From positions 71,860,001-71,924,000 of the forward strand of contig NC_086097.1 of the NCBI RefSeq assembly GCF_963921235.1: DNA of 64,000 nt, written 5' to 3'. How positions within the stretch are numbered: the stretch's first letter is position 1; the number at the start of each line of letters is the position of its first letter. Positions 3,766 through 57,296 of the stretch are shown one piece after another. The notes beneath the pieces were generated by a model. It worked only from the letters and a program-made list of their open reading frames with translations. It did no database searches and was not told the origin of the DNA. Both the position numbers and the translations under genes were made by a program. This DNA is from Mobula hypostoma (lineage: Eukaryota).

Positions 3766-4204
3766 TCCTGTGTTCTGGAATTCCTTCCCCAGTCCTTTAA
3801 CCTCCTTCTGTTTTTCACAAACATTCTATATCAAGTCTCATTGTTTCCCATTTTCAGATCAAGATGCAGTCTTGACCTAAAGCAATGACCATCCCTCTGC
3901 CTCCGCAGGTGCTACATGACCTGCTGAGTTCCTCCTGCTGTTTGTCTTTTTTGCTGTAATGTTGCATTGATATTTACCACTTATTTCAGTATTAGGAAAC
4001 TCCTCTTAGGTGAACAAATTTAATATTTTTAAATGCACTATTTTACGAACAATCCAACATGACCCTTTGTCTTTCTGTCTTGCAGAATGCATCATCAAGC
4101 AATTCCCAATCAGTTTTGGTCATTGAGTTAAATGGACAACGTAATTAATAAAATAACTTCAGGAGAATGAAGTACACCATTTGAAACATCAGCAGCACCC
4201 CCGC

Positions 4205-8100: not shown

Positions 8101-10015
8101 GGTATGAATAAACAATATTCAGCTGTTTGAGATGAGACGGTGCCTTTAACTGTTTTCCTTTATTCTATTAATGAATGTACTTCATATTAGTCAGAAATGT
8201 CCATTGATATCTCTTCAGTAAACTCAATAAAAGAATTTACTAGGTAGAGAACGAGGAAGGTAGTCTGTGAGCAGCAGGTAGTATCATCCAATAAGCTGTT
8301 AGATTTTAAGTGGATTTTGATTGTCTTTAAGCAGTGGACCATTAACTAAACTGTTCCAATTTCAACACAGTCTTCAAACTATTAATCATTGTATGTTGAA
8401 ATCTTTAGGCTTGCTTCAGTTACTTCCTCATTTGAAAATTATGTTTCAAAGACATAATGGCTTCAGAATCAAGTATATAAGAAATGATTTGTCAAGTTAA
8501 TACATGCAGGAATGTGGGACATCACATTTAACACAACAAAAGTCTATTTGTAGCACCACACGTAATACTTTTGATCAAAATTGGCAATGTGGAAAGATTA
8601 CATGGCAAGAAAGGTAATTGGAGAATTCTGTTTCAGTAACAAATGTATTTCAGCTTATTGTGTACAGGATGCTGCAAATGCGGTATTTAATATCTCCAGT
8701 ACAGTAATCCGCAATTACTATGCTAAGTGGGTGAAGCCATGAATTTGTTTCGGTCTTTGCTGCCACAAATTTGGAGTTCAGATTAGGGAGGATCTGTGTT
8801 ATTGAGCCTTTGCTGTGACCAGGGGCAAGGATAGGCAGTTCAGAGGGGTGTATCACAGCCAGGCACTGGAGTAATTATGGGAGGAGGAAGGACATTGGTA
8901 GGATATTGCCTAGGTGGAAGAGAATGCCATAACTGCAATCTTGGGGAATCTTGGAGTTGTAAGAAATACTGGCAGAGCTGAGGAAGGGATTGCAGGGTTG
9001 TATGAGGGCAGAGCTGGTGCAGGCCAGAGTTAGTAGCAGAATATCAATGGTAAGCACATGAGTTTGGTAGCACCAGCGACCAGTGTTCCACTTAGAACAG
9101 CAAGTCACTTGGGATGGACCAGCAATGGAAGCTTCCTTCTCCAGGAGCTGCTGAAGTGAATTTCATGTAGTAAGCAAGGTAGATTCATTCCAAGAAGTGT
9201 TGACTTTTCAAATTGACATGAAACCAGCTAGAAGTGAATACTGTTGCATTGCACGGCAGAGAAAAGCGACTTTTATTTGCATAAAGTTGAAAAAAAGGAG
9301 AGATGCACAAGGGGAGATTTGAGCCAAGAAGAGACTGTATGCTTAAGTGAGTGTGTAGACTGGGAATGGGGCAGTAATTACAGCAAAATATGAACAGTTC
9401 AAGCAGTCAGCTCCAATCTGCTGATTTTTGCATTTAATTTGAGTGTATTAGACTGCTCAGGGAACATGGGCTGCTATTGCAGTGTTATAGCAATGAAATG
9501 TAAAACAGATTTTAGATTTACCAGCAGTCTTGAAAATCATGACTGAAAGCCAAATGCGAATATCAAGAAAACTGGAGACACAGGAGATAGCAGATGCTGG
9601 AATCTGGAGCAAAAAAACAAACTGCAGGAGAAACTTAGTGTGTCTTGTAGCATCTGTGGAAACAGAGGGATAGTCAATGTTGTGCATTAAGACTGTGCGT
9701 CAGGATTCAAGAAAATTCAATTGACCGGTGAAAACCAATGGTGATATTTCATTAAACATCCAGTACTCTCTGCTGCTTTTGTCTATGAATGGAAAACATA
9801 TGTTCTCAGTAACTTGTCGAGGATTTATTTAAAGATTTTTTGAATTACATCTGGCTGGACAGCATTTTGGAAGCTGAATCCTGGTTGAAGCAATGTTGGC
9901 TTCATTTGAGCTCTTTAAAGGGTGGATGGCCGTGGGGATATAGAACTTGCAGCAGCCTCTACTCACGTCATTGGGTGTAGAGGCAGGGAATGTGCCTCCT
10001 CTTCATGTCAGAAGT

Positions 10016-10655
10016 CCACCTACACTCTGTCCGCCAGAGAAGGCAGGATCTCCCAGTGGCCACATATTTTAATTCCACATCCCATTCCCATTCTGATATG
10101 TCTATCCACGGCCTCCTCTACTGTCAACATGAAGCCACACTCAGGTTGGAGGAACAACACCTTATATTTCGTCTGGGTAACCTCCAACCTGATGGCATGA
10201 ACTTTGACTTTTCTAACTTCCATTAGTGCCCCATCTCCCCTTCACACCCTATCCCTAATTTATTTATTTATTTATTTATTTATTTATTCATTCATTCCCC
10301 CCTTTTTCCTCTCTCTTTTTTCTCCCTCTGTCCCTCTCACTATAAGTCCTTCCCATCTTCTGGGCTTCCCCCCCCTTTTCTTTCACCCTAGGCCTCCCGT
10401 CCCATGATCCTTTCCCTTCACCAGCCTCGTATCCCTTTTGCCAATCAACTTTCCAGCTCTTAGCTCCATCCCTCCCTCTCCTGTCTTCTCCTATCATTTT
10501 GGATCTCCCCCTCCCTCTCCCACTTTCAAATCTCATACTATCTCTTCTTTCAGTTAGTCCTGACGAAGGGTCTCAGCCCAAAATGTCGACTGTACCTCTT
10601 CCCATAGATGCTGCCTGGCCTGCTGCATTCACCAGCATTTTTTGTGTGTGTTGCT
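10016..10655 (+). mobile_element. Penelope-like element 3' fragment (GIY-YIG C-terminus and pseudo-LTR)
   Basis: ORF 9990..10226 (HLHSVRQRRQDLPVATYFN...LEEQHLIFRLGNLQPDGMN) closely matches 22530-22734. A hammerhead-like motif lies at 10555-10592 with GAAA mutated to AAAA. Confidence 0.9.
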
Positions 10656-10689
10656 CCATTAGGAGTGTTGGGTTGTCACATCAGCTGCT

Positions 10690-11312: not shown

Positions 11313-12331
11313 AAATGTCTGCTGCCTTCTACAACATAATTTGATCTCAGTGCCACAGGTTACCCACAGGAGATTGTCAATATACCACCATGATTAACTT
11401 AGATCTTGATCCATGGTCTCCTAGTTCAATAATCCATAAACGCAGAAGAAGGGTGACTAATGGTTAATTCATTTGTACCAGTAATTCTTTGAAGATGGTC
11501 AGCAATGACAGCAGTCAGAGTCCCTGGCTTTTCAAGTTTGCATCAGAGGCTGGCTTTAGGAGAATGACTTTATTTCACCCTCATTACACCTGCCAAGATA
11601 ATTACTGTGATTAGAAATGTAAAAGAGCATGGCGACTTCAGAGACTTGTTCCACCAGGTCAACTGGTGTCATTTATGGTACAGAGGTGACAACCAACATG
11701 CACCCTGATCTACCCTGAATATTCAGCAACCACAGGGCTTCTGGTTTGTTGATATGGAGACATTTATAACGAAACATTTAAGCTGTTGTGCAATGGGTTC
11801 TTACAGAGCTCTACAAAGCTTTAATTCTGCGATGGAATCTAATCTAATCCTGCAGGCAGATTTAACGGTGTGTGCTTTGGGAAAAGAGATACCTGCTTTA
11901 GTCCCCAGATGAGCATTCTGAACCATGACACCCTGTCGTTCTGCAGCAAATGTAGCATGTCATCAGGTGTTTGAATGAACAAAGCATTAACTGAGTATGT
12001 GATTACAATTAATGCTTAACGTACGTCTGAGATGCACAATGGCTGGATTCTATTAAGAACTTTTGGAAAACTATGGTGAAAGAAGTAGCTGCGGGAATAT
12101 TGGACATGATGCGAGGTGAGTAAAGCGAAGGTATTACAGAGGCTGGTTATACTCTGAGCAATTAAGTCACCATGTCCAGATTAAAAGCTGCTTAAGATTC
12201 AGAAGGAGACATTGCAGAAGTGCTTGTAACAATCTTCCATTCCTTCTTATATAAAGGGTGATATCAAAGGTCTGGAGAATTAGGAATACTCGAAAAGGGA
12301 AAGAAAACATAAACGTGGCATGAACAGATGT

Positions 12332-12414
12332 AGGGTCTCGGCCCGAAACATCGACTGTACCTCTTCTTAGAGATGCTGCCTGGCTGTTCACCAGCAACTT
12401 TGATGTGTGTTGTC
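12332..12414 (+). mobile_element. Penelope pseudo-LTR remnant (3' half of the hammerhead motif)
   Basis: agggtctcggcccgaaacatcgactgtacctctt...gttcaccagcaactttgatgtgtgttg matches 23042-23128. Confidence 0.85.
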
Positions 12415-12674
12415 AGAATATATAATTCACACTAATCATGTACAAGAAGTAAAATAATGAGAGGGAAATAGCAAAGGAATTAAGAGAGATAACGCATCAA
12501 AAAGAAAAAAAAGCTGACAAATATTTAATTTAAACTGGAGAAAGCATTTTGTTTTCAAACAATGTCTGCAATTTACCATATTGTGTGCATCTCAACATTA
12601 GCAAGGCAAAATGGGCAAACTCCTTCATTAGTACATTAGCACACAAAATTGGCAAAGAGCAGATACTAACGTAA

Positions 12675-14042
12675 TAGAAACATAGAAACATAGAAAATAG
12701 GTGCAGGAGTAGGCCATTCGGCCCTTCGAGCCTGCGCCGCCATTTATTATGATCATGGCTGATCATCCAACTCAGAACCCAGCCTTCCCTCCATACCCCC
12801 GACCCCTGTAGCCACAAGGGCCATATCTAACTCCCTCTTAAACATAGCCAATGAACTGGCCTCAACAGTTTGCTGTGGCAGAGAATTCCACAGATTCACC
12901 ACTCTCTGTGTGAAGAAGTTTTTCCTAATCTCGGTCCTAAAAGGCTTCCCCTCTATCCTCAAACTGTGACCCCTCGTTCTGGACCTCCCCAACATCGGGA
13001 ACAATCTTCCCGCATCTAGCCTGTCCAATCCCTTTAGGATCTTATACGTTTCAATCAGATCCCCCCTCAATCTTCTAAATTCCAACGATAACAAGCCCAG
13101 TTCATCCAGTCTTTCTTCATATGAAAGACCTGCCATCCCAGGAATCAATCTGGTGAACCTTCTTTGTACTCCCTCTATGGCAAAGATGTCTTTCCTCAGA
13201 TTAGGAGACCAAAACTGCACACAATACTCCAGGTGTGGTCTCACCAAGGCCTTGTACAACTGCAGTAGTACCTCCCTGCTCCTGTACTCGAATCCTCTTG
13301 CTATAAATGCCAGCATACCGTTCGCCTTTTTCACCGCCTGCTGTACCTGCATGCCCACTTTCAATGACTGGTGTATAATGACACCCAGGTCTCGTTGCAC
13401 CTCCCCTTTTCCTAATCGGCCACCATTCAGATAATAATCTGTTTTCCTATTTTTGCCACCAAAGTGGATAACTTCACATTTATCCACATTAAATTGCATC
13501 TGCCATGAGTTTGCCCACTCACCCAACCTATCCAAGTCACCTTGCATCCTCTTAGCATCCTCCTCACTGCTAACACTGCCACCCAGCTTCGTGTCATCCG
13601 CAAACTTGGAGATGCTGCATTTAATTCCCTCATCCAAGTCATTAATATATATTGTAAACAACTGGGGTCCCAGCACTGAGCCTTGCGGTACCCCACTAGT
13701 CACCGCCTGCCATTCTGAAAAGGTCCCGTTTATTCCCACTCTTTGCTTCCTGTCTGCTAACCAATTCTCCACCCACACCAATACCTTACCTCCAATACTG
13801 TGTGCTTTAAGTTTGCACACTAACCTCCTGTGTGGGACCTTGTCAAAAGCCTTTTGAAAATCCAAATATACCACATCCACTGGTTCTCCCCTATCCACTC
13901 TACTAGTTACATCCTCAAAAAATTCTATGAGATTCGTCAGACATGATTTTCCTTTCACAAATCCATGCTGACTTTGTCCGATCATTTCACCGCTTTCCAA
14001 ATGTGCTGTTATCACATCCTTGATAACTGACTCCAGCAGTTT
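12675..14042 (-). mobile_element. Young 5'-truncated CR1 (RT to 3' tail), open reading frame retained
   Basis: ORF 12753..14189 has YLDFQKAFDKV, GVPQGSVLGP and FADD, and is nearly identical to 59025-60394. (CATAGAAA)n tail at 12675-12697. Confidence 0.96.
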
Positions 14043-17000: not shown

Positions 17001-20000
17001 ATATGCCTGTGTAACTCAGTGCAAGGAAATTTCTGAGTGCATTGATAAAAATAGCCATACCTGTATATAACTGCATCTTGATGACAATCTGTGCAAGCTT
17101 AACAACACACATGATGTAATGTTAATGGAAACATTCACCAGGCAGAGAAATTAGTTTTTATCTAGTTGTTTATCCGGACACAAAGTATGGCAGACCACAA
17201 TGGTTGGGAAGCTTTGGGAGCCATGGAACCAATGACATTTTTGTCATTCCAAGCCTGCAATCCATACCACAAACAAAGAATTAGATTACTAATGTACTAC
17301 ATCTCAAAATACAGAAAAAGACCAGAGCCATTTCATAGATACACGTGGTTATTTACAATATGATTCTTTCTGCTGGCATAAGTAATAACTTAATCTACTG
17401 ACTAAAGCATAAACTAATTGGTTTAAGATTATTTTTGATTTCATACCACAAAGCTGATTATGTTGATTAAGCTGTGGCATTCATTAGACAGCTGCTAAAT
17501 CAAATGTTTCTTTGAACCTTGCACATTTTCACTTCAACTTGACATTTGAATATTTAAAAAATTGTGTTTTCTTTAAATTGGCCAGAAAATAAGTTTTAAT
17601 TTTGGGAATGTTGAAAATGTGGGAGAATTATACATGTCTTGAATGACAATAGAGTGAAATAGAGGAATGAAAAACCTGTTTATTGGTGTCTTTCCTTTTT
17701 CCCTCTGATGCATTTGCCCTTTGACTGTGCATTGCATATGTACCACGTGCTGAAGCTGACAATTCCAGTGTGTATTACTTGAAATATATTAATAGTCTTC
17801 ATGTAACATTAGTCAAAATAAAAACCAGCTCAACTTTTAAATGATAATCCCAAAGGCAGCTCATCACAATCTGACAAAGACTCTTTTTCAGTAGCATTGT
17901 TTCTAAATATGAACGTGCCTGGTAATTGAAAATTTCTGCCTATGATGCCAAGTTTACTTGTAACATGCAAGTTCAAATTGTTGGTAAGTCATTTATTTTG
18001 TTTTGCTTTGTAATTGCCTTCAACTATGATAAAGTAGGTGAATGGATAGTCATACTTATTTAAGGAAGTGTATCTGAACTTGGAAATTTCCCAGCCCACC
18101 CTACGGAGGTAGTCCACATTCTAATTAAATCATGAAGTTACTGATTTGAGTCAATAATGTGGTAGCATGTCATTAACAAAGCAAGTGCTGCTTGCTTTGG
18201 GGTCTTCTTGATGACAGAAACACCAAGTTTTCTCACCAGACTTGGTGGCATAGCTGTCTCTATTAGTTGTAAGTATTTCTGTCTGTATACAGAAAAGGGC
18301 AGATGCAATGTAATGGAATGGAAGGAACACAAGAAAAACTTTTACCTTCAACTCAGTATCCACAAATACATAACTTCTAATGAGCCCACTTTAATGAACT
18401 GCATAACATTTATAAAATGGTACTTCAGTTAGAAGTAATGTAGTTGTGCAAACTTCACAGCATTCCCCATTTGTTAATAGGTGTATTTGATTATGGCCCA
18501 CAGGATCTTGGAAAAAGATTCAGATCACTCAAACTGAGCTTTGTTGGATCCATTTAACTTATTTTCAGATAGGCTAATGTACAGAGTGCTGAACTCAAGG
18601 CAAGAAAAAAAAAATCTCTATACTAAAGGCTGACATCGGTTGGCAGATCTAGCCTGCAGCCATGGCGGAAAACGACCTTTGAAGAGGAAAAAATAATTCT
18701 GTATGGAACCCAACTGTGATTAAATGAAATGGATTTCTGTTGAATTACTGATGGACTTAGCCTTTTCCTCAGGGAATGGCTGTCACTGTTTCCTGTGGCT
18801 CATTGCAGGAAAGTAATTCCCACTTTGCAGGTGTTTCATACTGATAACTAGATGAATACAACCCAATCTGAACTTAAATTATTTGCATAATTTCATTAAA
18901 ACAAAAATTTGTTTGTTGCAATTAACAACAATGCTACGATTTTGCTAAGGTACTACATCAGTATTTTGTTGGCAATTGTTGAGATATTGATAAATTATTA
19001 TATGCAAATCATTATGGTCAGTGAAATCCTGGATCATCTTTATTTTGAGATGAGTATACTTGAGATTAGCTGGTGGGGACAGTGGTGAGTATGATATTTG
19101 GGAACAGAGTTTCCTCCACCCTAAAGTGTGAATAACAAACTGTTTGGCTGTAGGTATATAGATGTTATCATGCACTGTCATTGAAAATTACAGTACTTGT
19201 AGAGCTATTGAAATGCATGAAATTAACTCATCAGAAAAAGAGTTTCTTCTTATAACACATGTTAAGCAATTCGATGTTGGAAAGTCAGTAGTGGTAAGTT
19301 CCAGAGAGCAACTGTGTGTGCTATCATTGCTAAAAGGTTGAGGGAAACTTATTACACATTCCTCTCTTGCATGCTTCCTTACTGATGGTGCGCTGCAGTT
19401 ATTCATTTTAAATTCTTTATGAGCTAATAACAGTATTTTAAATTATTTTCATGTTGTTTCTGTCACAACCAAGGAATCTGCCATGGAGTCTGGGCGCTCT
19501 CGCAGGCAGGCAGCAGAAGAAGACAGCAATCGTGCACATGAGAAAGCACATTAAGGTTTCTTTGTAATTACATTTAATTCCCTTCCTTTCGTTTCAGTCT
19601 TGACAAGTATTAACTGAAGCACAGCAATGGCAACACTCTCTCCTTACTCCAGTCCACATTCCAGGAAAGAAGACTGGCACAAAGGTTGCTCTCAAGGATG
19701 AATGTAAGAACCATGCTGGATGTGTTCCTGGTGAGAGGGTGAATAGAAAAGAATATTATCCAAATACACAAATACAAACTGATTCAACACGTCGTTGACC
19801 AGGGCCTGAAAAACAGCAGGGCAATAGCCAAACCAAATGGCACTCATAGTGGCCATTGGAAGTGTTGAATGCAACCCTTCTCTGATACGAACCAGGTTGT
19901 AAGCAATGTGCAGATCTATCTTGGAGAATATGGTTGTTCCCTGGAGATGTTCAAATACAGAAGTAAGCAGGGGAAGAGAGTACTGGTCCTTCACTCTGAT

Positions 20001-20649
20001 GTTATTGAGGGGCCGATAATCAACACAGGGACGGAACTTGCTATCCATTTTGTTCACAAAAAAGGAGCTCACCTCTGTTGGTGAGGTTGATGGACTAATG
20101 AATCCTAGGGCCTTGATGCATTCTTCAATTACCCCTTTCAGGATGAGAAAGTGAAAAGATCTGCTCCCTGGCAGAATTAGAATTTAGTAAGAGGTCAATG
20201 GTGCGGTCATGTACTCAGTCTAGAGCCAGGGAAGTTGCTTTCTTCTCACTGAAGATTTCAAGAAGGTAAGCTTATTCAGCTGGGACAGCAGACAGGTCCA
20301 CAGCAGCAGTTGGCACAGGAGGGGATATGCTGATGGGGGCTTGGGCTAGACCCAGACAGGTAGACAGACATGCCAGACCCCACTCTTGGAGTGCCCTTAT
20401 GGACTAATTGATCCACCGCCAAGCACCTGCGGCATTTCAGCTGAATCAACAAGACAGAAGAAGAGCCGTTCCCTTTGGTTGCCTTCTAACACAAATGCGA
20501 AGAGTGTGATCCAGAGGAATTTTCTTGAGTTCTTGAGTTGCAGATTGGGACATCCTGAGAAAGTCTCTCATGTGGGACTTCCAGCAGGCACAGGTCTCCG
20601 GTGCTCTGGGAGGCACACCGGGGGGGACGGAGTGGTTGCTGTGATACCT

Positions 20650-20900
20650 GTTGTTATGCGATGGCAGTACATTGCAAACATAATAATAAAAAACTGGGAA
20701 TTACAGTCATAAAAATACGTGAATAAATTTAAATTAAATAACTAGTGCAAAAGGAGAAAATAAGTGGTTCATGGGTTTAATGAACAAATCCAGAAATTTG
20801 ATGGTAGAGGGAAAGAAGCTGTTCCTGAATCAGTGAGTGTGTGCCTTCAGGTTTCTATACCTCCTCCCTGATGGTGGCAATGAGAAGAGGGCATGTCCTT
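20650..20900 (-). mobile_element. Rex1/L2-clade LINE 3' end
   Basis: Antisense 3' signature gaagctgttcctgaatcagtgagtgtgtgccttcagg...cctcctccctgatgg...gagaagagggcatgtcc, shared with other Rex1-like ends in the window. Confidence 0.7.
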
Positions 20901-21054
20901 GCTTCAGTCTTGTCAAGTCTTGACTGAAGAACGGTGATGATAACACTCCCTGCTTACCTTAGCCCATGTTCTGGGAAAGAAAGGAGTAAAGGAGTAGTGT
21001 TAGTTCAGTTGCTGGTGAACGCAGCAGGCCAAGCAGCATCTATAGGAAGAGGCG

Positions 21055-21092
21055 CAGTCGACGTTTCAGGCTGAGACCCTTCGTCAGGACTA
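21055..21092 (-). ncRNA. Minimal type-I hammerhead ribozyme motif (Penelope pseudo-LTR), core intact
   Basis: RNA reads UAGUC-CUGACGA-A-GGGU CUCA GCCU-GAAA-C-GUC^GACUG. Stem I is UAGUC/GACUG, stem II is 4 bp, and stem III is a palindromic ACGU. Predicted cleavage is between 21060 and 21059. Confidence 0.75.
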
Positions 21093-21388
21093 ACTGAAGG
21101 AAGAGTGAGTAAGGGATTTGAAAGCTGGAGGGGGAGGGGGAGATGCAAAATGATAGGAGAAGACAGGAGGGGGAGGGATAGAGCCGAGAGCTGGACAGGT
21201 GATAGGCAAAAGGGGATACGAGAGGATCATGGGACAGGAGGTCCGGGAAGAAAGACAAGGAGGGAGGGGTGACCCAGAGGATGGCCAAGAGGTATATTCA
21301 GAGGGACAGAGGGAGAAAAAGGAGAGTGAGAGAAAGAATGTGTGCATAAAAATGAGTAACAGATGGGGTGCGAGGGGGAGGTGGGGCC

Positions 21389-22067
21389 TTAGCGGAAGTT
21401 AGAGAAGTCGATGTTCATGCCATCAGGTTGGAGGCTACCCAGACGGAATATAAGGTGTTGTTCCTCCAACCTGAGTGTGGCTTCATCTTTACAGTAGAGG
21501 AGGCCGTGGATAGACATGTCAAAATGGGAATGGGATGTGGAATTAAAATGTGTGGCCACTGGGAGATCCTGCTTTCTCTGGCGGACAGAGCGTAGATGTT
21601 CAGCAAAGCGGTCTCCCAGTCTGCGTCGGGTCTCACCAATATATAAAGGCCACATCGGGAGCACCGGACGCAGTATATCACCCCAGTCGACTCACAGGTG
21701 AAGTGATGCCTCACCTGGAAGGACTGTTTGGGGCCCTGAATGGTGGTAAGGGAGGAAGTGTAAGGGCATGTGTAGCACTTGTTCCGCTTACACGGATAAG
21801 TGCCAGGAGGGAGATCAGTGGGGAGGGATGGGGGGGACGAATGGACAAGGGAATTGTGTAGGGAACGATCCCTGCGGAATGCAGAGAGAGGGGGGGAGGG
21901 AAAGATGTGCTTAGTGGTGGGATCCCGTTGGAGGTGGCGGAAGTTACGGAGAATAATATGTTGGACCCGGAGGCTGGTGGGGTGGTAGGTGAGGACCAGG
22001 GGAACCCTATTCCGAGTTGGGTGGTGGGAGGATGGAGTGAGAGCAGATGTACGTGAAATGGGGGAGA
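21389..22067 (-). pseudogene. Penelope GIY-YIG endonuclease region, left arm, frameshifted at the YIG motif (~21645)
   Basis: ORFs 21415..22077 and 21389..21664 together encode the same peptide as the right arm. Confidence 0.9.
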
Positions 22068-22734
22068 TCACGTACATCTGCTCTCACTCCATCCTCCCAC
22101 CACCCCACTAGGAATAGGGTTCCCCTGGTCCTCACCTACCACCCCACCAGCCTCCGGGTCCAACATATTATTCTCCGTAACTTCCGCCACCTCCAACGGG
22201 ATCCCACCACTAAGCACATCTTTCCCTCCCCACCTCTCTGCATTCCGCAGGGATCGTTCCCTACACAATTCCCTTGTCCATTCGTCCCCCCCATCCCTCC
22301 CCACTGATCTCCCTCCTGGCACTTATCCTTGTAAGCGGAACAAGTGCTACACATGCCCTTACACTTCCTCCCTTACCACCATTCAGGGCCCCAAACAGTC
22401 CTTCCAGGTGAGGCATCACTTCACCTGTGAGTCGACTGGGGTGATATACTGCGTCCGGTGCTCCCGATGTGGCCTTTTATATATTGGTGAGACCCGACGC
22501 AGACTGGGAGACCGCTTTGCTGAACATCTATGCTCTGTCTGCCAGAGAAAGCAGGATCTCCCAGTGGCCACACATTTTAATTCCACATCCCATTCCCATT
22601 TTGACATGTCTATCCACGGCCTCCTCTACTGTAAAGATGAAGCCACACTCAGGTTGGAGGAACAACACCTTATATTCCGTCTGGGTAGCCTCCAACCTGA
22701 TGGCATGAACATCGACTTCTCTAACTTCCGCTAA
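22068..22734 (+). pseudogene. Penelope GIY-YIG endonuclease region, right arm, with one frameshift near 22230
   Basis: Reads RVPLVLTYHP...CKRNKCYTC...FTCESTGVIYCVRCSRCGLLYIGETRRRLGDRFAEHL...LEEQHLIFRLGSLQPDGMN. Confidence 0.9.
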
Positions 22735-23029
22735 GGCCCCACCTCCCCCTCGCACCCCATCTGTTACTCATTTTTATGCACACATTCTTTCTCTCACTCT
22801 CCTTTTTCTCCCTCTGTCCCTCTGAATATACCTCCTGCCCATCCTCTGGGTCACCCCCCCTCCTTGTCTTTCTTTCCGGACCTCCTGTCCCATGATCCTC
22901 TCGTATCCCCTTTTGCCTCTCACTTGTCCAGCTCTCGGCTCTATCCCTCCCCCTCCTGTCTTCTCCTATCATTTTGGATCTCCCTCTCCCCCTCCAGCTT
23001 TCAAATCCCTTACTCACTCTTCCTTCAGT

Positions 23030-23067
23030 TAGTCCTGACGAAGGGTCTCGGCCTGAAACATCGACTG
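23030..23067 (+). ncRNA. Minimal type-I hammerhead ribozyme motif (right arm), stem III mutated (GUC to AUC)
   Basis: tagtc-ctgacga-a-gggtctcggcct-gaaa-c-atc-gactg. Confidence 0.65.
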
Positions 23068-23644
23068 CGCCTCTTCCTATAGATGCTGCTTGGCCTGCTG
23101 CGTTCACCAGCAACTTTGATGTATGTTGCTTGAATTTCTAGCATCTGCAGAATTCCTGTTGTTAGTGTTAGTTCAGTATTAGCTTACTGCTTCTGAGATG
23201 CAGTGACAGCATTGGATTTTAACTTGAGAGGTTTAGTTAGTGGCCCTGTTAGCCTAGCATTTATTATTTTCCTTTTGTTCTGTACAGTTCCCGTTAAAAC
23301 TCAGTGAACAGTTCATTCCACTTCGGTGTGAGTCCCTCTGTACGTGGGCCCTCACTAAACTCCTGTCAGCAAGACTTGACTGCAGGTGGTTTGGGCCACT
23401 CAGTAATTGCCATGAACTTTACGGGGTCTATTTGAACATTGAGCATATAGCCCACGAACAACACTTGCTCTTTGTGGAACTCACATCTCTCTCTCTCTGT
23501 CTCTGTCTCTCTTTCTCTCTCACTAACTTTGTGATGGATTAGCTTCCATCGTCACAGACAACTGAATTTTCAACAACATCAAAAATTTCAACTTCTTCCG
23601 TGACAGTGCAGCTTGTGTACTACAGCAAACTGCAGCTAATTTTT

Positions 23645-23990
23645 ACAGATGGAGAGCATTCTAACTGGATGCATCACAGCCTGGTATACAGGCTGCAATG
23701 CAGAGGATTGCAAGAAGCTGCAGAGAGTTATAGATTCAGCCATCTCAATCATGGCCACACCATCCCCCACTAACAAGGACATCTTCAAGAGGTGGTGCCT
23801 CCAGGAAGTGGCTTCCTCTATATAGGACCCTCAACATTCAGTATGTTCTCTCTTCTCATTACTGCCATCGGAGAGGAGGTATGAGAGCCTGAAGACTCAC
23901 ACTCAATGATTCAGAAACAGCTACTTCCCCTTCATCATCTTAATGATCAATGAACTCATGAATTCGAACTCATTTGTTCCTTTTTTGCAT
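23645..23990 (+). mobile_element. Rex1/L2-clade LINE 3' fragment
   Basis: Reads ESILTGCITAWY...CKKLQRV, followed by ctcttctcattactgccatcggagaggaggt and cagaaacagctacttcccc. Confidence 0.75.
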
Positions 23991-25053
23991 TAGTCTGAAG
24001 GTTTTTCTCAGTACCTTTCCAAAATCTGTGAAATGCCTACCACTCTGGAATGCCAAAGACGGAAAATAGAAGGGAATGCCGTAGGTTACCTTTTCCCTCC
24101 CAGACACACACTATTCTGATTTGAAAATATATTTCATTTCTAGACGTCATTCTAGAATTCCCTACTGATAAGCATGCTGACTAGAACAACAGCAGTGCTT
24201 TAAGAAGGTACATTGCCACCTTCCAAAGGTAATTAGGGATGGAAATAAATTTTGGTTTAGTACTGATACAATCACCCTACCAGTGATGAAAAGCAAGCTC
24301 AAAAACTTCTCATCTTCTGTCAAAACAGATGGGTAAGGCTCCATCTCAATCTGATTTATGATACTAATTACATATCTGTTATGCAGAGTTAAACAGCCGC
24401 AGGGAAATTCCAGTTAGAATGTCTTTCAAGCAAAATTGTGCAAGTCAAGTAATATAAATAAAAAGGATTCATGTTTAAAATGCACAGTTATAACTCGGGT
24501 AGGAATGATCTCTTTGTCACTCTAAAATCTAACTGTTACTGTGTAGCATTGGATCTGTCAGCCTGCCAAAGCCCTGCAGGGAAATAACCTGCAGCAATGT
24601 ATCTGTGCTTGTTTGCAGGGTGGTGATGCTGTTGAAATGTACTATTGTACAATTGTCCACTGGTTATGATCGATGGCACATCCTCCTGAAGGAACGGTTG
24701 CACCTTATGGAATGATTGTGCAACTGTGCACGAGTGGCAGGAAGATTTATGATGCAGATGGCAACACAAAATGTCTGGCAGCAGGATGAACAAGCACCAA
24801 CCAGCTTGTACACAGAAGCAAATTAATATGGTTCAGCCAAAAGATTTGCTGTGGCCATCTCAGCATGTAAAGCACACAGGAAGAAAATGAACAGCTCCGA
24901 AAATATTGCAGGCCTTCATCCTGAAAACTGCTTGCACAGCATTTCCACACATGCCCTTTTGTGATGCCCTCACCAAGTTTTGCTTGGTACTATGGATGCA
25001 TGTACAGAGGTCGTATCTCCACAGCAGCTGGAACGTGTAGTTTGCCTGCCACT

Positions 25054-25196
25054 GAGCAACAAACAATCTGGTGAAGGAACTCAGTGGGTTGAGCAGCATC
25101 TGTGGGAGAGAGGAATTGTGGGCAATCCTTGTCTCTCATCCCCCCCCCAGATGCTGCTCAACCTGCTGAGTTCTTCTGGCAGATAGTTTGCTGCTC
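25054..25196. repeat. Short imperfect inverted repeat made of Penelope pseudo-LTR-like termini
   Basis: gaactcagtgggttgagcagcatctg (25078-25103) pairs with cagatgctgctcaacctgctgagttc (25148-25173). Confidence 0.75.
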
Positions 25197-26181
25197 CAGA
25201 CTCCCTACCATAGGGATTGTTTAGACTTCATTTTGATTCCATTGCAGGGAAATTATCTTCCTGGTCTCGGACCAAGACCTCCATTCAATGCCTCATGAAG
25301 AGTTGGATATTGCAGAGATACTGGGGATACTGCACAAACAGCTCTCTTTGGGTGATGGCTGCTTTGGGTCAAATACTTAGGTAAATTTGTAGCATTATAA
25401 TCTCAGATATTCTGGTGAAGAAAATGTTCACAAGCAGATTCAAAGTGTTAATGTTATTTTTCTGCTGCTACTTTCTCTATTCCAAATCTTTCTCGCATCC
25501 CTGGATATTTGTCAAGGCCATTAATCCTTGTTAAAGGGTATTGAAGAGAAACCCTTGACAACAATCTCAGACTATAAATGGGGAGATTAATTTCACTTCT
25601 CATTGTTCATCCAGAGAGTTTAAAGAAGGGAAGGCAGATTCAGAAGGTGCTACAGAGCTGAGATAAATACCAAAGGGGTTCTCATCGCTGTGGCATGAGC
25701 ACATAATTATCATAAAGTAATACAAGAGGTTCATGGGGCACCTTGGAAAGTGCACAGGACATACTGTAGAACCCAGCAAATATATTCCAGGGGAGAGAAT
25801 GTGCAAGAACAGGCAATGCTATCTGTGGTTGTTTGCTGCTCTGTTGGGGTACTGACTGTCGTAACCAACAGAGACAGTAATGCAGTTCAAGATCTCCGGG
25901 CTATGTCACATGCTGCTTTGGGAACTGTGTAGGAGTCAGCTCCTATTCTGCTGCCTTTTGCATTAAGCTTTGACACACACTCCCCCCACTGACATGTACT
26001 CTAATGGAGACTATACCAGGAGCAGCACAGTTTTAGAAGGTTACTTCCTTCCCCATGGACTTCACTGTCGTCGTCCATTTACCATACGGCAAAGTTGTGA
26101 TAATTCTGAACTGAAGTAGAATGTAATTGACACATAAAACTGCATAGCCTGCCAGAAAAGATGCATCTTCCTTCTTATATT

Positions 26182-26696: not shown

Positions 26697-26756
26697 TACA
26701 CTCAGTGGCCATTTTATTAAGTATAGGAGGTACCTAATAAAGTGGCCACAGACTAT
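26697..26756. mobile_element. Miniature Tc1/mariner-type MITE (TIRs only)
   Basis: TA-cactcagtggccattttattaagta ... tacctaataaagtggccacaga forms a ~58-bp palindrome. Confidence 0.7.
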
Positions 26757-29074
26757 ACAAGCTATTCATTGGAATATCTCCCAGTTCTGTTGAAAGGACA
26801 TTAACCTGACACAGGAAATCTGTTTCTACACCACATGCTGCCCGGTCTGCCAATTCCAGATTTTGTTTCTTTGTATAGCAAAGAGCAGGGCTAACATTTG
26901 CCGTTTAGTTCATATAGCTCTCATCCGCTGTGATAAAATCTGCTTAATCACAAATGAAGTTGCTTGGCCTGTGGTTTAATAGAACCTTTTGAATTATAGT
27001 AGGGTTCAACTGGATGAAAAACTGCTTCTGCTTGTTGGGAAGGGGTTCGGGATGGATCCAAACTAAGCATAATAATTAAGAGGAGGTATTAAGAAATCCA
27101 ATAAGAAACTCAAGAGAAACTTTTTTTTACATTTACAGTTTGGAAGAAACTACTGCAGTTGAAACAAAGAACAGAGACACCTTTATGGGAAAGCAAGATA
27201 AAGAAATGAGGTTGAAAGAAGCAGAGGTTATGCTGATTGCTCGAGGAACTGTGCTCTGAGAAACCACATAGGTAGTATTAACACCACATAGATCACCTAA
27301 GATATAGCTTATTTTTATACTGCACGTTCTATGTCACTCTTTTTCACATTGAAAAATGCCACAGTTGCTTCATCTTCATCGAAAAATATTTGTCTATTTG
27401 GATGTCTCAATTCTGTGTATCTTGGTGTTACTGCAGCTTTTGAAATTGTTGTTTTGAAACCATCAAACAAGATTCACTGAACAATAGGGTGATTTGAAGT
27501 GGTGGGAGGCAAGCTACAGGACATCAGCACACTGCACAGACTGTTGCTAGGAGCTGAAGTGAGGCAACGACATGCAGCGTACAGAAAGAGAAAGGGAACT
27601 AACAAGTCACTTGACACGGAGGAGGCCGGTGCAACTGGGTCTACTGCAGACAGGAGAGACAGAAAAGGAATCAAAACCAGGCTGCATATTCCTCAAAGCA
27701 AGAGGGAAAAAAATGAAGCACATTTCTTTCTTTGTTTTTATTTTCAGAATATGTTTGGTGCTCACAGGACTATTTACAGTGCTGTTTTTTCTGTCACTAA
27801 TACTGTTTACCTCAGGCCAGGAAAATATCAGTAACTAAGAAGTTACAGTAAACACCAGACAATTATTTTTTCTAACTATTCAGAAGTATTGCTGATTTAC
27901 AAATTATGCATTGGGGATATATTGGGAAAGGAAATGTTATTCCCTCTATTTTAGCAACAACAGCAGAACTGCTCTCACAGCTAGTGTCCTTTGAAAGTTC
28001 CTGACTGCTGTGCTGAATGACTTTAATCATTTTACCTTTACAGAATACAATGCTTAGGACAAATTTTGGTCTGAGTAGTGTATGATTTTCTACCGTAATG
28101 AAATCAGCACCACCACAATAGATTTAATAATTCATTTTTCATACACTTTGGGAGTCAGCAGCTGTGTAAGTCAAGACATTTCTTTTATCATTAAGGTCTG
28201 TCTGAGCTATTTGATATAAAGAATACAACTGGTCCAACAATATTGGCATTTTACGCTGCCACAAAATTAAATGCATTGATTAGTATTTGATTCTTCATAT
28301 TCTTATAAATTCTCTGCCAGCGATTTCCAAGGAGATTCAAATAAGAAGGAAAGGCCACCTTTCACAGAACAGTGTGCCAAGTATTAAAATATGCAAATCC
28401 CCCTTTCCGATCAAATGTGAAGGAAGTTCTGCTTGGCTGGCAAGGGAGCCCCAATGGGTTCCAGTAGCTGTAAAAATAATTTTAATAGGGTGACAGAGCT
28501 TGATGCTGAAGATGGCTCAAAGAATGATATATCCGAAGGTTGTCAATACTGAAATCAGATTGTCAGCGAAACAACATCAGCATGAGGGGGGTCTCCTTGA
28601 TAAGACTGCCGGTAAAGCACAAAGCTTCGGGCATCAAAATGGAGTTTCAGCAATATTCTATTTGCTACAAAAGCAGTTATGAATTATTCAGGAATAGCAA
28701 TGGGGAAAATTGGTGATGGGATGCAAACTGGAAATTAGCATAAGTCAAGGAGTCCAAACCTATGTTTGGATAAGCACAACAATTCAGGGATAGAAAAATC
28801 ATAAAAGGACATTAGAGATATTAACATAAAAATACAAGAGAACAAATATGAGAAACAAAACTAAAATAATGGTCTGGATCCAGCAAGAAACGCGCAAGGC
28901 CGTTATTGGCAGGGGCGAGGCAAAGGAAATAGAGGGAGCATGGGAAACTGGTCATTTGGAATTGACTTAGCAGGGAGCCACCTTGCAAATGGGGGTGAGT
29001 TGGCAAACTGGAGGAACATCTGTTGGTAACAGGTTGGGTGCGAGAGGGAACAGAGCCCACAAGCTTTTAAGTTT

Positions 29075-31870: not shown

Positions 31871-32726
31871 CACGTTCTTGTTATGGTGAAAGGCAAGACT
31901 GGCATGTTAAGGCGATCCTGACTGATATCCTGATCAGCATGGATACCTGTGCATGGAACCAAAGGAAATGGGTAAGATTTTTAACGAGTATTTCTCCTCA
32001 GAATTTACTGTGCTGTAAACAATGGAGGTTAATAAGATTGAGGAAATGGGTGGCGTTGTCTTGGATTACGTACAAATTGACAGGGAGTTGGTATTGGAGG
32101 CCTTGAAGTACATTAAGGTGCTCAAATGCCCCAAGTCTGACCATGGATTCCTAGACCTTGTGGGAAGCTAGAGAAGAAATTACAAAGGCTTTTGTTTAGA
32201 GATTTTTGCTTTATCTTTGGATAAGCAAAGATTGGAGAGTGACTAAGGTGTACTATTGTTTAAAAAGGGTAGCAAAAACAGACAAGAAAACTACAAGACA
32301 ATGAATTGACGGAGTGATGGGCAAATTGCTTTAGGGGATTCTGAGGGTCAGAATCCATCGCATTTAAAGAGATAAGGTCTGATCTGGGACATGTAGCAGA
32401 GCTTGTGTGTGGAAATTGTGTCTGTTAGATCTCCTTGTGTTCATTGAGGAGATAATCAAGAGGGTAAATGATGGTAGGGCAATGGCTACTGTCTATATGG
32501 ACTTTAGCAAAGCCTTTGATAAATTACTTCATGGTTATCTGGTCTGGAATGTTAGGTCACATGTGATGAAAGGGGAGGTAGAGGATTAGGTTTATCATTG
32601 GCTCAGAAGTAGGAAGCAGAGAGTATTAGTCCAGGGTTGTTTCTCAGACTGGAAGTTTGTGTCTGGTGGTGTGCCACTGAGGCCTTTGTTGTTTGTAATT
32701 TGTAGATTTCGATATAGATGTCCAAG

Positions 32727-32867
32727 CAGGAGAAAATCTGCAGATACTAGAAGTCTGACTGGTCCTGATAAAGAGCCTCGGCCCGAAAAGTTAACTGTTA
32801 ACTCTTTTCCATAGATGCTTCCAGGCCTGATGAGTTCGTCCAGAATTTTGTGTGTGTTGCTTGGAGG
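32727..32867 (+). mobile_element. Short Penelope-derived insertion with decayed hammerhead motif
   Basis: ggtcctgataaagagcctcggcccgaaaagttaactg. Flanking direct repeat tagatgt(c/a)caag at 32715-32726 and 32868-32879. Confidence 0.75.
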
Positions 32868-35568
32868 TAGATGTACAAGGTATGGTAAGTAAGTCTGTGG
32901 ATGACATTAAAACAGATGGTGTTGTTCATAGTGTAGAGGAATATGAAAAATTAATCAACAAGATACATGGGCTGATAACTAGCATTTGGCTTTCAATCCA
33001 GAGAAATGTGAGGTATTGTGTCTTGGGAGGTCAAACCAGGGATTTATACATTGAATGGCAAGCCCTTGGAAAATCCTATAGAACAGATACCTAGTTGTGC
33101 ATAGTTTGCTGAAAGTGGTGTCACATGTAGAAAGGATGGTGAAGAAAATGTATGGCCTTCATCAATCAGAGTATTATGCATAGGAACTAGGAAGTTATAA
33201 TGCAGTTATATAAAATGCTGGAGAGACCATGTGTACTGTTTTGGTCACCCTGTTATAGGAAAGATTTTATTAAACTTGAAAGTCTGCCCCCTACTAAATC
33301 ATTAACAGCTATCTAGATAGGTACATAGATAGGAAGGGTTTAGAAGGCTATGAGCTAAATATGAACAGATGGGACTAGGTCACTGGGCAACCAAGTAGTC
33401 ATGGTTAGGCTGAGGAGCCTGTTTACGTGTTGTATGGCTTTATGAGACTTCAACTCTATGACTCCACACTTGTTTAAGAGAAAAGCTGGAATATACAAAG
33501 CAAACCAGATGTAATACTGATAGGTTGTGGCCTCTCATCTCCATAAGTTTTCTGAGTATTTTCACTGAAGACATGGGAAATCCATCTTAACTAGAGCAAT
33601 TAACAGCAAAGCGATGCACAGTTTCGCTTTTGTCAAACGAATCATGCTGTAATTTGGACTTCTTGCATGTCCGTTGCTATCAGGTGTAAGTTGCTGAGTA
33701 TCCCTGAGATCCAACCATGGCGATGTCATCAAATTGGCAATTGAAGATTCACGCGAAGAACAAACAGGGAGGAGGAAAGGTGTCATCTTTAACCAATACT
33801 TTATACAGTTTTTGCAAGAAAAATAAACAGTAAAAAATATAAAATAACGAAAGGTCAAATACTATTAGCAAGTTGATTGAAACTATGAAAGCTTATCTGT
33901 AGAATCTCTTGTAGCTAAGGGTTATAATCACTGACATACAACAAAGCACATTATTTTAAAGTGTTTCTTGGAGGTTAATTTGGAACTGTCTTAAATTCTT
34001 ATGAAATCACTGATCTCCCATGATTGTCTGGAATAGTCTGGTATATTGTGCAGCATAGAAGATGGAAATAAACACAGCAGCCCCTGAATTTCTACATTTA
34101 TTTGGCTGTACAGGAATCCCAGAAGTGCAACCAGTTTCACAGTGTATTAGTGACAAATGTTAACAGCCTTGCCTTCATTGCTTCTAAAAATAACAAACCT
34201 TGTTAATTTTATCCACAGTAATGTGCAATACCTGTGATGGATTGATAGCAGGAACATTTCCACTGATTAATAATTCTGGAATAGATCGCGACAAACTTTG
34301 GATCTTACTGCATAAATTAGAATCTCTTGGGGGTAAAGTGGTGGTAACATGGTACCTCATTTCTGGGTTCTGCTGCATTAATACATGGTTAGCGAACTGC
34401 AGGCATTAATGGTGCCTGTGCTTGAGTGGGAGGTTGCCCATTTAGGTGGCACATCGGTGGAGATCCGATACAGCCAGTTTGCTGCTCTGCCACCAATCCA
34501 ATGCCACCCACAACTCATCCATTTGGACCATGCATTCAGCCTCTTTACCAAGTGTCCTTTCAACTCTTCTGTGGATTTTGTTGCTCCCTTTGTGAAGCTC
34601 TTGAGAAATGAAGCTGCACTGAAGATGTTTGATGCATACTTCATTGTTGCAACATTGCTGGAGCATTTCGGAAAGGCGGGAAGAGGAATCAAGTACAGGT
34701 CAAGTGTGCAGGTGGACTAAATCCTTTCGCTGAGAGGCAGTTTGTGTGTTTAATGGACTGAAAATAAATTTTTAGAAGCAGCAGAGGAGATGTGAAAAGC
34801 TGTGCACTGCATAAAGGTCATCTCAGTCAGGCAGATGATAAAAAAAATCTTTAAAATGATTTAAAATGTTCCAAAAATAGATGGACAAGCTGTGGAATAT
34901 GACTTGAAGAATCCAAGTGGAAAGCTAGTAAACTTCCAAAATTCAGTGTGGAGTTCAGCCCAGGGAGAGTAAGAAGCCAGTGATAGAAATGCCTGATGGT
35001 GAATGGGGAACAAGTTAGAGCCACTAGCCACTCAGAAGTTGGCATCAAAGAGGTGTTCTGAGATACAGTATTGTGACAATAAACAAAATGCACTGGATAA
35101 TGACATGGAGACTTAGATGATTAGACCCTTAAAACAAGCAATATGATGTTGTTGTCTGAATTACAAGAAGCTCACCAATTTGGTGCTGTTATTTTCCAGT
35201 AGCTGCCACATACAGTCTGCATCAACTCTGCAGATGACTAACCATGCATCAGCAGGTACATCATGGCTACAACATCTGCTGCCGGCATACCATAACTGAA
35301 CTGAAAAATGGCATTAGTTGGGAGAGAGTGTACTTTGAGGTTCCCTGCATCAAAGGCCTGGGTGGAGGAGGTGGAAAGCAAGAAATATCAGAAGATTAAA
35401 GGAACTTGCAGATGCTTGTTCATGAGTAGTGGACCAGATAGTCGTGAATTTCACGATTCAGGTCCAAAGTCCTTGGATGAAGAAAACCAATTATCTCACA
35501 CAATTAAGTGCCAATGTTGCCAACTACCAACATTGGACTCAAAACTGCCCAATTCAAAACAGCACCAT

Positions 35569-36575: not shown

Positions 36576-39500
36576 TGTCAGGCCTGTACGTACAGGCTTC
36601 TCCCAGTCTCATACCCTGCTAACAGGAGACACCTGCCACTCATTTCCAACTCATCATCTGCAGCCTATTTAAACCCATATCTCATCCACAATCTTTGTTC
36701 ACTCATACCAGTTGTTCCTAGTGTTCAGTTACTTTGTTGTCTTGTTGTGTTATGTATCGGTTCTCTCTTGTTTTGTGGCCCCTCGTGGCTCGTTATTTTG
36801 CACCTTATTATTAAAGTTATCACTCACCAGTAAATTATCTCTGCTGCCCTGAGTTTGGATTAAGCCCCCTCTACATTCTCTGACAGGATGAGTGAACTAA
36901 CAATGGACCCAGCAGCGTGTTCTGGCTTAAAGAAAGTCATCCATCGAGATGAGCACACAATCCACAAGCTGCAAGAAACCACTGGCACTTTCTTGTTGAT
37001 ATGCTTGCCATTCTCTTCCAGTTCGCCATCTCAGTAAAGCAACCCTATGACAATCAGTCTCCTCCCTCTGAGCTCTGGATTCCAGTGCCCAGTGACGGAG
37101 CACCAACCGGATGATGTAACTTCCTGTCCCAGTGCCTCTCCAGCCGTCTCTTTATTTTACGGACTGAGCCTGACCCAAGTGTACGGTTATGGCCTGAGTG
37201 TAGAGGGAGAGACATTGAAGCAGATGAACAATTCACAGACTTGTAATAAAATCTGTGCAGAACTAAAGGAAAAATAATAAATGCTAGGCCAACAGGGCTG
37301 TCAACTAAAACTCTCAACCTGAAGATTAACGTCAATACTATGGCTAGGAAGCAATAACTTATTACTTAATGAATACTTCTCCTTTACAGCGTCAATCTAA
37401 GTGGAAGCCTTCTTTCGGGGGACAAGGCAAAGGTAAGCAGAGGGTATAGACATTACTGCACTTTTGCACCAGTCCTGACAAGACTGGAACAAGAGGAAGG
37501 GAGTTAAATACCACCACAATGAAACACAAATTGGCTGGAAAGTGCATACTCACGAGCGCGATTGCCAAACTTGTTCTGCAGCCCACCTGCAAGTGCGTGA
37601 AGGCCCTGTGGAAGAGTCCATGGCTGTGACAGAACCAAGATTATCTTCGTCATCTCTCTCTTGACGGGGTGAGTTCTGACTTGAATTACTGCTAACTGGG
37701 ATAACAAAAAAACCACCATTTGCAATAAATTTGAAGAATTGACCACTGATATGCATTGGGTTTTCGACCATCCGAAGGGGGACAGTGGATTGGATACTTT
37801 CCCTGCATCAAAGTTCACGGTCAATGCTGGATTACACTGTGGAATTCAGAACTCTTAAAGCGGAGTGTGGATGGAATGTGGAAGTACTGCTGGCCCATTA
37901 CCATCACAGCCTCTTGGAGTGCTTGAAAGATGAGCTGTCTACTCTAGAGGTGCTCACTGACCTCGAAAGCCTCATAACTCTGGTCCTCCAACTTGACATG
38001 CGCCTTCTGAAAAAAACCCTCCAGATCATCAGCCAAAATCCCAGTTCTGGTCCCTGGACCATTTCAGGTTGCAGGACCCTCATCATCAACACCTGCAGAA
38101 CCCATGCAGTTAGGGAGAGGGCGCCTAACTCCAGAACAGCGTAAGCATCGGTAGAGAAACAACTTGTGCTCTTACTGTGGAGCAGCTAATCACTCACGCA
38201 TCAAATGCCCACTGCGTCCGGGAAAATGGCACTGCCAGATAGAGATGGAGGACCTTCTTTTTGTCAAGTTCCCCCAACCATTTGTTCCAGCACCATAGCC
38301 CAACTTACACGCTCTGATCTCCTCCACACCCCAACAGCTCTATGTGCCCAGGAGGCTGTCGTGGATTCTAACATAGCAGGCAACTTTCTGGACCGGACTC
38401 TATGTCTGCAGCTTGGACTGCCTACCAAGCCAATCTCTCAATCCTTCTGCATCACAGCTATTAAGAGATGTCTCTTGGGATCTGGGATGTTCAGAGTGCA
38501 CACATGGCCTGTGCACATGAGCATTGGAGAGCACTATGTCCATCCAATTCTTCCTGACTAACCCACCCAACACGCCTTGCATCCTGGGCTAGCCATAGCT
38601 TTCCATTCATCATCCTCTCTCCACCTGGTCATCCAGTTCACTGGTGAGTTGGGAACCCACTTGTCAGACCACCTGCCTGCAACCTCAGTTGACTATATCT
38701 CATAAATCCGTGTAGACAAAGGAAACACTCGATCTCAGCAATCCTCTGCAGGAATACCATGTCTTAGACATTGCCTTCAGTAAATGGGAGGCCAGCACCC
38801 TGTTACCCTACAGATCACACAACTGTGTGATTGACTGTCTCCCGAGTAACACCCCTCCCCAAAATTGTCTGTCCTCCCTCTCCCCTCCTGAGACCCAGAC
38901 CATGAATGAGTATATCGCCAAAGCACTACAGCATGGCTTCATTCGAGCATCCTAGTCCTCAGCTGGTGCAGGGTTCTTCTTTGGACTGATGGTTAGCACA
39001 TTGAAGCACTCTGCAGGGCCCAGACCTTCATCAAATGTGATTGATGCAGCACATTCAACCTGACCCGTGTCCACCAGGGGGATGAGTGGAAGAAAGCATT
39101 TGTAACACTCATTGGTTTCTATGAATATATTGTAATGCCTTTCAGACTTTCCAACAGTCTAACTGTTTTCCATGCTTTCATTCACAAGGTCCTCTGAAAC
39201 ATGCTACACAGGTATAGTAGGTATTTTGTCTACTTCGATGACCTACTCATCTTCTCCAAAGACCCCCAAGTCCCTGTCTGTCATGCCTGTCCAGTCCTTC
39301 AACATCTCCTCAAAAACCAACTGTACTGCAAGTTGGAGAAATGCCAGATTCCTCCCCCCACCGCCCCAAGTCATTTCCTTCCTGGGTTATGTCTTTTCAC
39401 CACAGTGCATTACATGGACCCAGAGGAAGTCCACACAATTGTTGAATGACGCTGACCATGCTCCCTTAAACAGCTGCAGCAATTCTTCGGCTTCTCCAAC

Positions 39501-57291: not shown

Positions 57292-57296
57292 AATGG

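Follow-up and report, generated by a model that had tools for sequence, protein, structure and literature searches.

A head-to-head Penelope-like element insertion in Mobula hypostoma with family sequence unique to each arm

Here, we examined a 64-kb stretch of the Mobula hypostoma genome (contig NC_086097.1, positions 71,860,001 to 71,924,000; hereafter the window) and found that a 2.15-kb quasi-palindrome within it represents a dead Neptune-type Penelope-like element (PLE) that lacks its 5' portion and belongs to a very high-copy ray family. The element entered an older repeat in a single event bounded by one target-site duplication (TSD), and its two arms each contain some family sequence missing from the other, namely the spacer on the left arm and the tail on the right. 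With slightly better than even confidence, we attribute the structure to one integration event in which each of the two nicks of a cut staggered by 15 nt primed RT.

Structure of the insertion

The coordinates of all features are shown in Table 1. In a pairwise alignment of the left arm (minus strand) with the corresponding portion of the right arm (plus strand), the two were 98.19% identical over 1051 columns and differed by 15 substitutions and 3 indels (4 gap columns), that is, in 19 columns in all. The right arm with its tail measures 1095 nt and the left arm about 1060 nt, and the extension that only the right arm possesses is 47 nt long. The 15-bp TSD, TAGTGTTAGTTCAGT, is perfect and occurs only twice within the window; a match of 15 bp without mismatch was obtained in none of 1000 random draws of 41-nt window pairs. 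Each arm has its own frameshift, a 1-nt loss on the left and a 2-nt loss on the right, and both arms are dead. The left arm stops 15 nt before the inner 3' end of the family (23115 versus 23130), a distance equal to the length of the TSD, which may be a coincidence.

Translated on the left arm, the 11-nt spacer gives ISPI/SRTSALT, which is in frame with the family proteins (the tblastn match of the family protein P0002 begins at 22068), and family contigs run from the left arm through the spacer and base 22068 into upstream family sequence (47 contigs in run X1 and 43 in run X8). Because contigs from 22068 enter upstream family sequence, this base fits both arms and represents a 1-nt microhomology. 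The predicted RNA fold of the insert was a single 1039-pair hairpin, in which uninterrupted stems of 38, 3, 121, 1, 95, 145, 55, 8 and 294 bp follow one another from the centre outward. An earlier note, made from the letters of this DNA, had described two near-identical outward-facing arms of ~1.05 kb, an 11-nt spacer extending the left-arm reading frame, a single perfect 15-bp TSD round both arms, a left arm without the last ~50 nt of the right, an AGT microhomology of the left arm with the TSD and a separate frameshift in each arm, and all of these features were recovered in our analysis.

Table 1. Features of the insertion and its immediate flanks (window coordinates)
Feature	Position	Strand	Remark
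Older host repeat, left half	20896-20994	.	Paralogue at 37493-37379, minus strand
TSD, left copy	20995-21009	+	Last 3 nt (AGT, 21007-21009) shared with the element
Left arm, 5'-truncated Neptune-type PLE, tail-less	21007-22056	-	3' end leftward; ~15 nt short of the usual inner 3' end
Minimal hammerhead motif, left arm	21055-21092	-	CUGACGA ... GAAAC GUC; short helix I; motif only
Left-arm ORF remnant (linker and GIY-YIG)	21389-22068	-	Broken by 1-nt loss at 21647/21648
Spacer, 11 nt	22057-22067	-	Element sequence extending the left arm upstream
Right arm, portion common to left arm	22068-23115	+	
Right-arm ORF remnant	22068-22734	+	Broken by 2-nt loss near 22234; stop at 22732-22734
CX4CxxC linker, right arm	22330-22356	+	
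GIY-YIG (PF01541), right arm	about 22438-22665	+	
Minimal hammerhead motif, right arm	23030-23067	+	CpG change at 23060 disrupts the ACGU palindrome
3' extension, right arm only, 47 nt	23116-23162	+	Contains the family tail of ~30-33 nt (about 23130-23162)
TSD, right copy	23163-23177	+	
Older host repeat, right half	23178-23369	.	Paralogue at 37363-37170, minus strand

Identity and abundance of the element

The arms contain the last ~220 codons of a Penelope-like ORF and its stop, beyond which a minimal hammerhead motif lies in the 3' region. The GIY-YIG domain was matched by PF01541 above the cut-off (E 8e-6; residues 68-143 of the 165-aa remnant, then the stop), and the CCHH motif whose two cysteines stand between GIY and YIG, part of the definition of EN+ PLEs in PMC8557442, is present (GVIYCVRCSRCGLLYIG and downstream histidines). 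Both arms also have the linker CKRNKCYTC (CX4CxxC). Since a CX2-5CxxC linker between RT and EN is common to Neptune and Nematis and absent in Penelope/Poseidon, according to PMC8557442, the element was placed with Neptune or Nematis and not with Poseidon. The label Neptune-type was chosen because of this linker and because Neptune is a clade detected in vertebrates (10.64898/2026.07.22.740005), the insert itself being without RT. PLE-type RT, absent from the insert owing to 5' truncation, could be seen in relatives: P0002 (95% identical) contains YIDD, and P0008 gave an RVT_1 match below the cut-off. The best protein match was 95% identical and came from Mobula hypostoma, the others being from Hypanus and sharks (16 matches among 268 candidates, longer proteins only). 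The one-sided tail of 30-40 bp, the inverted 5'-truncated copy and the TSD that EN+ PLEs may carry were all found as well. The assignment to a Penelope-like element and the insertion as one TSD-bounded event, both put forward in the earlier note, are supported.

The hammerhead motif of the left arm includes the core, a long helix II and the palindromic ACGU, in agreement with the PLE hammerheads described in PMC4209133. It should be noted that this call is by motif only, as the Rfam hammerhead model gave no match in the insert, and that the folding stability of the motif showed no excess (z 0.2-0.5). The 49 Rfam matches obtained, mostly to miRNA models and all below the gathering scores, were rejected as hairpin artefacts.

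With regard to abundance, a 2.6-kb stretch was matched by 87,082 to 141,969 contigs per run in four runs (130,546 in run X1). The comparison was made with contigs only and covered the centre, the right arm and the right flank (22030-24600) in 4 of the 23 runs listed. Summed depth in the two closest runs was of the order of 10^6 on the arm versus ~7 on the unique flank, a ratio that should not be read as a copy number. In metagenome contigs, a pattern scan for family DNA gave 0 matches and none of the 187 candidates of a protein scan was confirmed; similarly, none of 10 candidates in viral contigs was confirmed. A literature search of main texts, with few subscription papers among them, yielded no description of two-template PLE palindromes or of the present ray family.

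A single event in an older repeat

The insertion is one real TSD-bounded event. Its flanks are contiguous halves of one older repeat, and a paralogue in the window (37493-37170) matches both in order and carries between them a single 15-mer, 10/15 identical to the TSD. In addition, a contig of organism B matches 23163-23277 with 4 differences and then continues with 95 letters unlike the element, and in a contig of organism F the match starts at 23166, with 145 other letters beyond; both look like empty sites, the flank being a low-copy repeat for which paralogues are possible.

These observations argue against an artefact of fold-back chimeric reads in assembly or library, or of one arm having been mis-polished with reads of other copies. 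Among the contigs listed for the best-matching run, none spans the centre or the right junction, and mis-polishing could mimic the silent-biased differences described below. However, the arms differ at many columns, neither the frameshift nor the unique family sequence of one arm is found in the other, the flanks differ from each other and yet form one repeat, the paralogue holds a single TSD-like word at the very spot, and the contigs of two other organisms part from our sequence at the right junction; we find an artefact hardly credible. Two separate events, that is, an ordinary insertion to which a second family copy was later added, or which such a copy overwrote in part, through insertion or ectopic recombination, might be expected of so abundant a family, and the arms do differ as two copies would. 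Yet both arms lie within one perfect TSD, a search of the junctions gave no second one, the 5' ends are no more than 11 nt apart and the head-to-head layout is standard for the PLE class, so that such a history appears quite improbable. As to how a single event produced both arms, the earlier note had proposed a snap-back cDNA copied to nearly full length, which in its simple form is unsupported. Along the plus strand, the centre is antisense through the left arm and spacer and then sense into the right arm. A fold-back from the tailed right arm does not fit, because its loop would continue the right arm but in fact continues the left; a fold-back from the left arm does not fit either, because the 47-nt tail would be missing from its copy. 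A simple snap-back should leave one arm inside the other and the loop on the primary cDNA, which was not what we found: with the spacer only on the left and the tail only on the right, each arm is an incomplete copy of the other, and a snap-back completed in one step is excluded.

Snap-back followed by editing would be a more elaborate alternative. In it, a tailed cDNA would fold back, be copied almost as far as its start and be joined to the upstream target through AGT; asymmetric loss of bases from the fragile centre, or repair of the centre from some other family copy, would then have left the 11-nt spacer of the left arm and a few subfamily variants close by. Palindromes acquire central deletions. 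Such a course needs no coincidence for the near-equal 5' ends, explains the non-standard left end with its microhomology as well as the one-sided tail, and accords with the four silent changes between the arms, none of which is more than 262 nt from the centre, the region in which repair of a hairpin break would take place. R2 proteins give snap-back junctions (PMC11371274), and self-priming has been proposed for PLE palindromes (PMC3846280). On the other hand, the spacer polarity is wrong for a single step, so that a second event, such as a later central deletion or a second priming, is required, the present junction offers only 1 nt of pairing, and nine UTR differences are located far from the centre. 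We regard this course as possible but doubtful.

Proposed priming at both nicks

Double priming, in our judgment, fits the arrangement somewhat better than plain snap-back. In this model, the bottom-strand nick would prime a cDNA at the outer start site, giving the right arm with its tail, and the top-strand nick, aided by the 3-nt microhomology, would prime a second cDNA at the inner site, giving the left arm. Both cDNAs would stop within 11 nt of each other, their 3' ends would be joined nearly blunt with a 1-nt overlap, and copying of each through the other would result in a head-to-head pair between the TSDs. The family sequence unique to each arm is consistent with two primings. Moreover, 3' ends of the other PLE pieces in the window form two clusters ~30 nt apart: four of nine end at 23128-23132 and three at ~23159-23162 (right-arm coordinates), the remaining two being unclear and the ends of the pieces at 12324, 5120 and 9603 having been read by eye where alignments overshoot. 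The single PLE protein examined in vitro nicks and extends both strands and starts RT at two sites whose spacing equals the tail, and it is predicted to form a dimer (PMC11167929).

Two observations count against double priming. Independent 5' truncations would be expected to lie no more than 11 nt apart in only 0.5-0.8% of cases, and since chance agreement of the 5' ends is below 1%, coupling of the two polymerases must be assumed. Furthermore, the left arm ends at 23115, outside the inner cluster, with microhomology, and a microhomology join to the target is also how a snap-back strand looks (PMC11371274).

One or two template RNAs

If both nicks were primed, the arms might have been copied from one RNA or from two. 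Six coding substitutions separate the arms; all four non-CpG changes are silent, whereas both CpG changes replace residues. The silent bias of the non-CpG changes gave a P of 0.0036 (163 silent and 503 replacement sites) in a test that was post hoc and on 4 sites, and P became 0.015 without the site beside an indel, 0.035 with both CpG changes included and 0.098 with both adjustments. Between the arms, pS was 2.5%, UTR divergence 1.9% and non-CpG pN 0. A 506-nt stretch without non-CpG change had a P of 0.009 under uniform decay versus 0.13 under selection weighting, this test sharing sites with that of silent bias and thus not being independent of it. No significant difference in substitution density between ORF and UTR could be observed by itself (P 0.06).

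The arm differences resemble divergence under selection, silent divergence being close to that of the UTR, and these data suggest either that the arms differed before insertion or that a later rewriting from some other copy altered part of one arm. The total arm divergence (15/1047) could also lie within what decay since the sister-species split would give, the flank differing from the sister species by 1.5-1.8%. Three residues common to both arms (VRHH, CEST and SHFD) were unseen in the homologues aligned at those columns, and therefore the arms should come from one close lineage. On the basis of these sequence comparisons, two source RNAs are mildly favoured over one as template. A further proposal is that the two RTs of a dimeric PLE RNP, carrying two source transcripts, primed at opposite nicks and stopped together, which would make head-to-head PLEs two-RNA hybrids; we offer it tentatively and think it rather unlikely.

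Other PLE pieces in the window

Typical PLE insertions have an inverted 5'-truncated copy beside the 5' end and a tail of 30-40 bp at one end (Craig 2021, PMC8557442), and rotifer PLEs show the same layout with TSDs and junction palindromes, head-to-head being the most frequent arrangement (Arkhipova 2013, PMC3846280). The formation of these inverted structures is called undefined in PMC8557442. The statement of the earlier note that PLEs often carry inverted 5' segments agrees with both sources and with the window, where three of eight PLE insertions are head to head. These eight comprise 10 strong profile matches and one inverted tail piece (E 0.24); two weak matches of the 12 (E 0.21 and 0.73) were left out of the count.

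A second head-to-head case is a decayed 143-bp palindrome (25054-25196) from the 3' end of an older PLE, with arms of ~60-75 nt and a very short spacer; no TSD was found around the pair at 25054-25202. An older PLE mini-insertion (32715-32879) consists of an inverted tail (32731-32752) and a direct, non-overlapping body that bears the hammerhead (32761-32863), within a TSD of 12 bp with 1 mismatch (6 matches in 1000 null draws). As fold-back cannot give an inverted tail together with a non-overlapping direct body, two primings are needed here, and the layout looks like twin priming at two RT start sites. Solo PLE 3' fragments of several ages are present at 10017-10660, 12324-12424, 5108-5250, 3862-3963 and 9603-9705, ~65-85% identical to the focal element or to one another. 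The minus-strand piece at 9603-9705 was considered as a partner of the 10017-10660 copy and rejected, since it belongs to a different, older family and has no convincing TSD.

Palindrome stability and surroundings

The earlier note had regarded long palindromes with tiny spacers as generally unstable, which is probably overstated for the present insert. In yeast, spacers >8 bp escape MRX/Sae2 attack and cause no fork stalling, and a 9-bp spacer reduces breaks by 80%, although breaks are not abolished (PMC8053094). Given these data, the 11-nt spacer and the mismatches 38 bp out, beyond the innermost perfect stem, should make the insert a milder substrate than a perfect palindrome. Read-through transcription might, as the earlier note supposed, give ~1 kb of dsRNA that could serve as an endo-siRNA or ADAR substrate, and the DNA might extrude a cruciform.

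A Pfam search of 149 of the 160 open frames outside masked repeats gave no match to a known host gene family, and short exons would be missed by it. Five frames had Pfam matches, four to retroelements and one, weak and below the cut-off, to DUF3439. A LINE, which we take to be CR1-like, has an uninterrupted 1006-aa endonuclease and RT frame at 57276-60296 and is possibly young, with truncated near-identical copies at 12674-14042 (98.8%) and 46194-48112 (95%). Decayed LTR-retrotransposon-like pieces occur at 19692-20183, 37700-41300 and 44259-45954 (RVT_1 at 19695-20183, RT-RNaseH at 39571-40014), their frames being presumably Gypsy-like and Bel/Pao-like. Two imperfect small inverted repeats (18355-18454 and 26697-26757), ~70% self-complementary and unrelated to the PLE profile, are possibly old MITE-like elements.

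Significance

The insertion is a tidy, long example of a known PLE layout, of modest mechanistic interest. The locus itself is a dead repeat, and its value lies in providing a clean case for how PLEs build inverted structures. Ray genomes offer thousands of copies in which spacer polarity, the side of the tail and silent arm differences can be recorded, and these features could separate snap-back, double priming on one RNA and priming on two RNAs. If the two-RNA reading were true, head-to-head PLEs would record an intermediate of PLE integration that can be counted in ray genomes. The case also shows that a quasi-palindrome of kilobase size and only 11 nt of spacer can be present in a vertebrate assembly for long enough to gain frameshifts.

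Comparison with known systems

The closest parallels are described EN+ PLEs (PMC8557442, PMC3846280), which share with the present insert the head-to-head arrangement, one TSD, the one-sided tail, the hammerhead motif and the short junction. Here, in contrast, both copies are truncated near the same point, which turns the whole into a 2.15-kb quasi-palindrome, whereas in rotifer PLEs (Pen2a_Av, PMC3846280) the inverted part is the pLTR of ~200 bp. The TSD is also longer (15 bp, compared with 8-10 bp in the rotifer cases described), and the one-sided extension reaches 47 nt owing to the early stop (by ~15 nt) of the left arm.

For PAc, a Poseidon element of Anolis carolinensis (Frangieh 2024, PMC11167929), two RT start sites bound the tail, both strands are nicked and extended and a dimer is predicted. 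PAc belongs to another clade, Poseidon being without the CX2-5CxxC linker that the present element possesses, and that study dealt with nicking and extension rather than inverted products or their joining. Its start sites are not homologous to the cut DNA, whereas the present left junction has a 3-nt microhomology. The chemistry of PAc is nevertheless what an explanation by double priming needs.

A similar use of both nicks was reportedly put forward for L1 by Ostertag and Kazazian in 2001 as twin priming, in which a second primer from the other nick gives an inverted 5' segment within one TSD. It resembles the present insert in the primer from the other nick, the microhomology at an internal site, the inverted 5' segment and the single TSD. 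The two halves of twin-primed L1 copies are mostly non-overlapping parts of one RNA; the present insert differs from them in that both arms span the same 1.05 kb. L1 twin priming is touched on in 10.1101/2024.12.14.628481. Finally, cDNA snap-back by R2 proteins (PMC11371274) likewise joins antisense element sequence to the upstream target, but its loop lies on the primary cDNA that bears the 3' end, whereas the present spacer is on the other arm.
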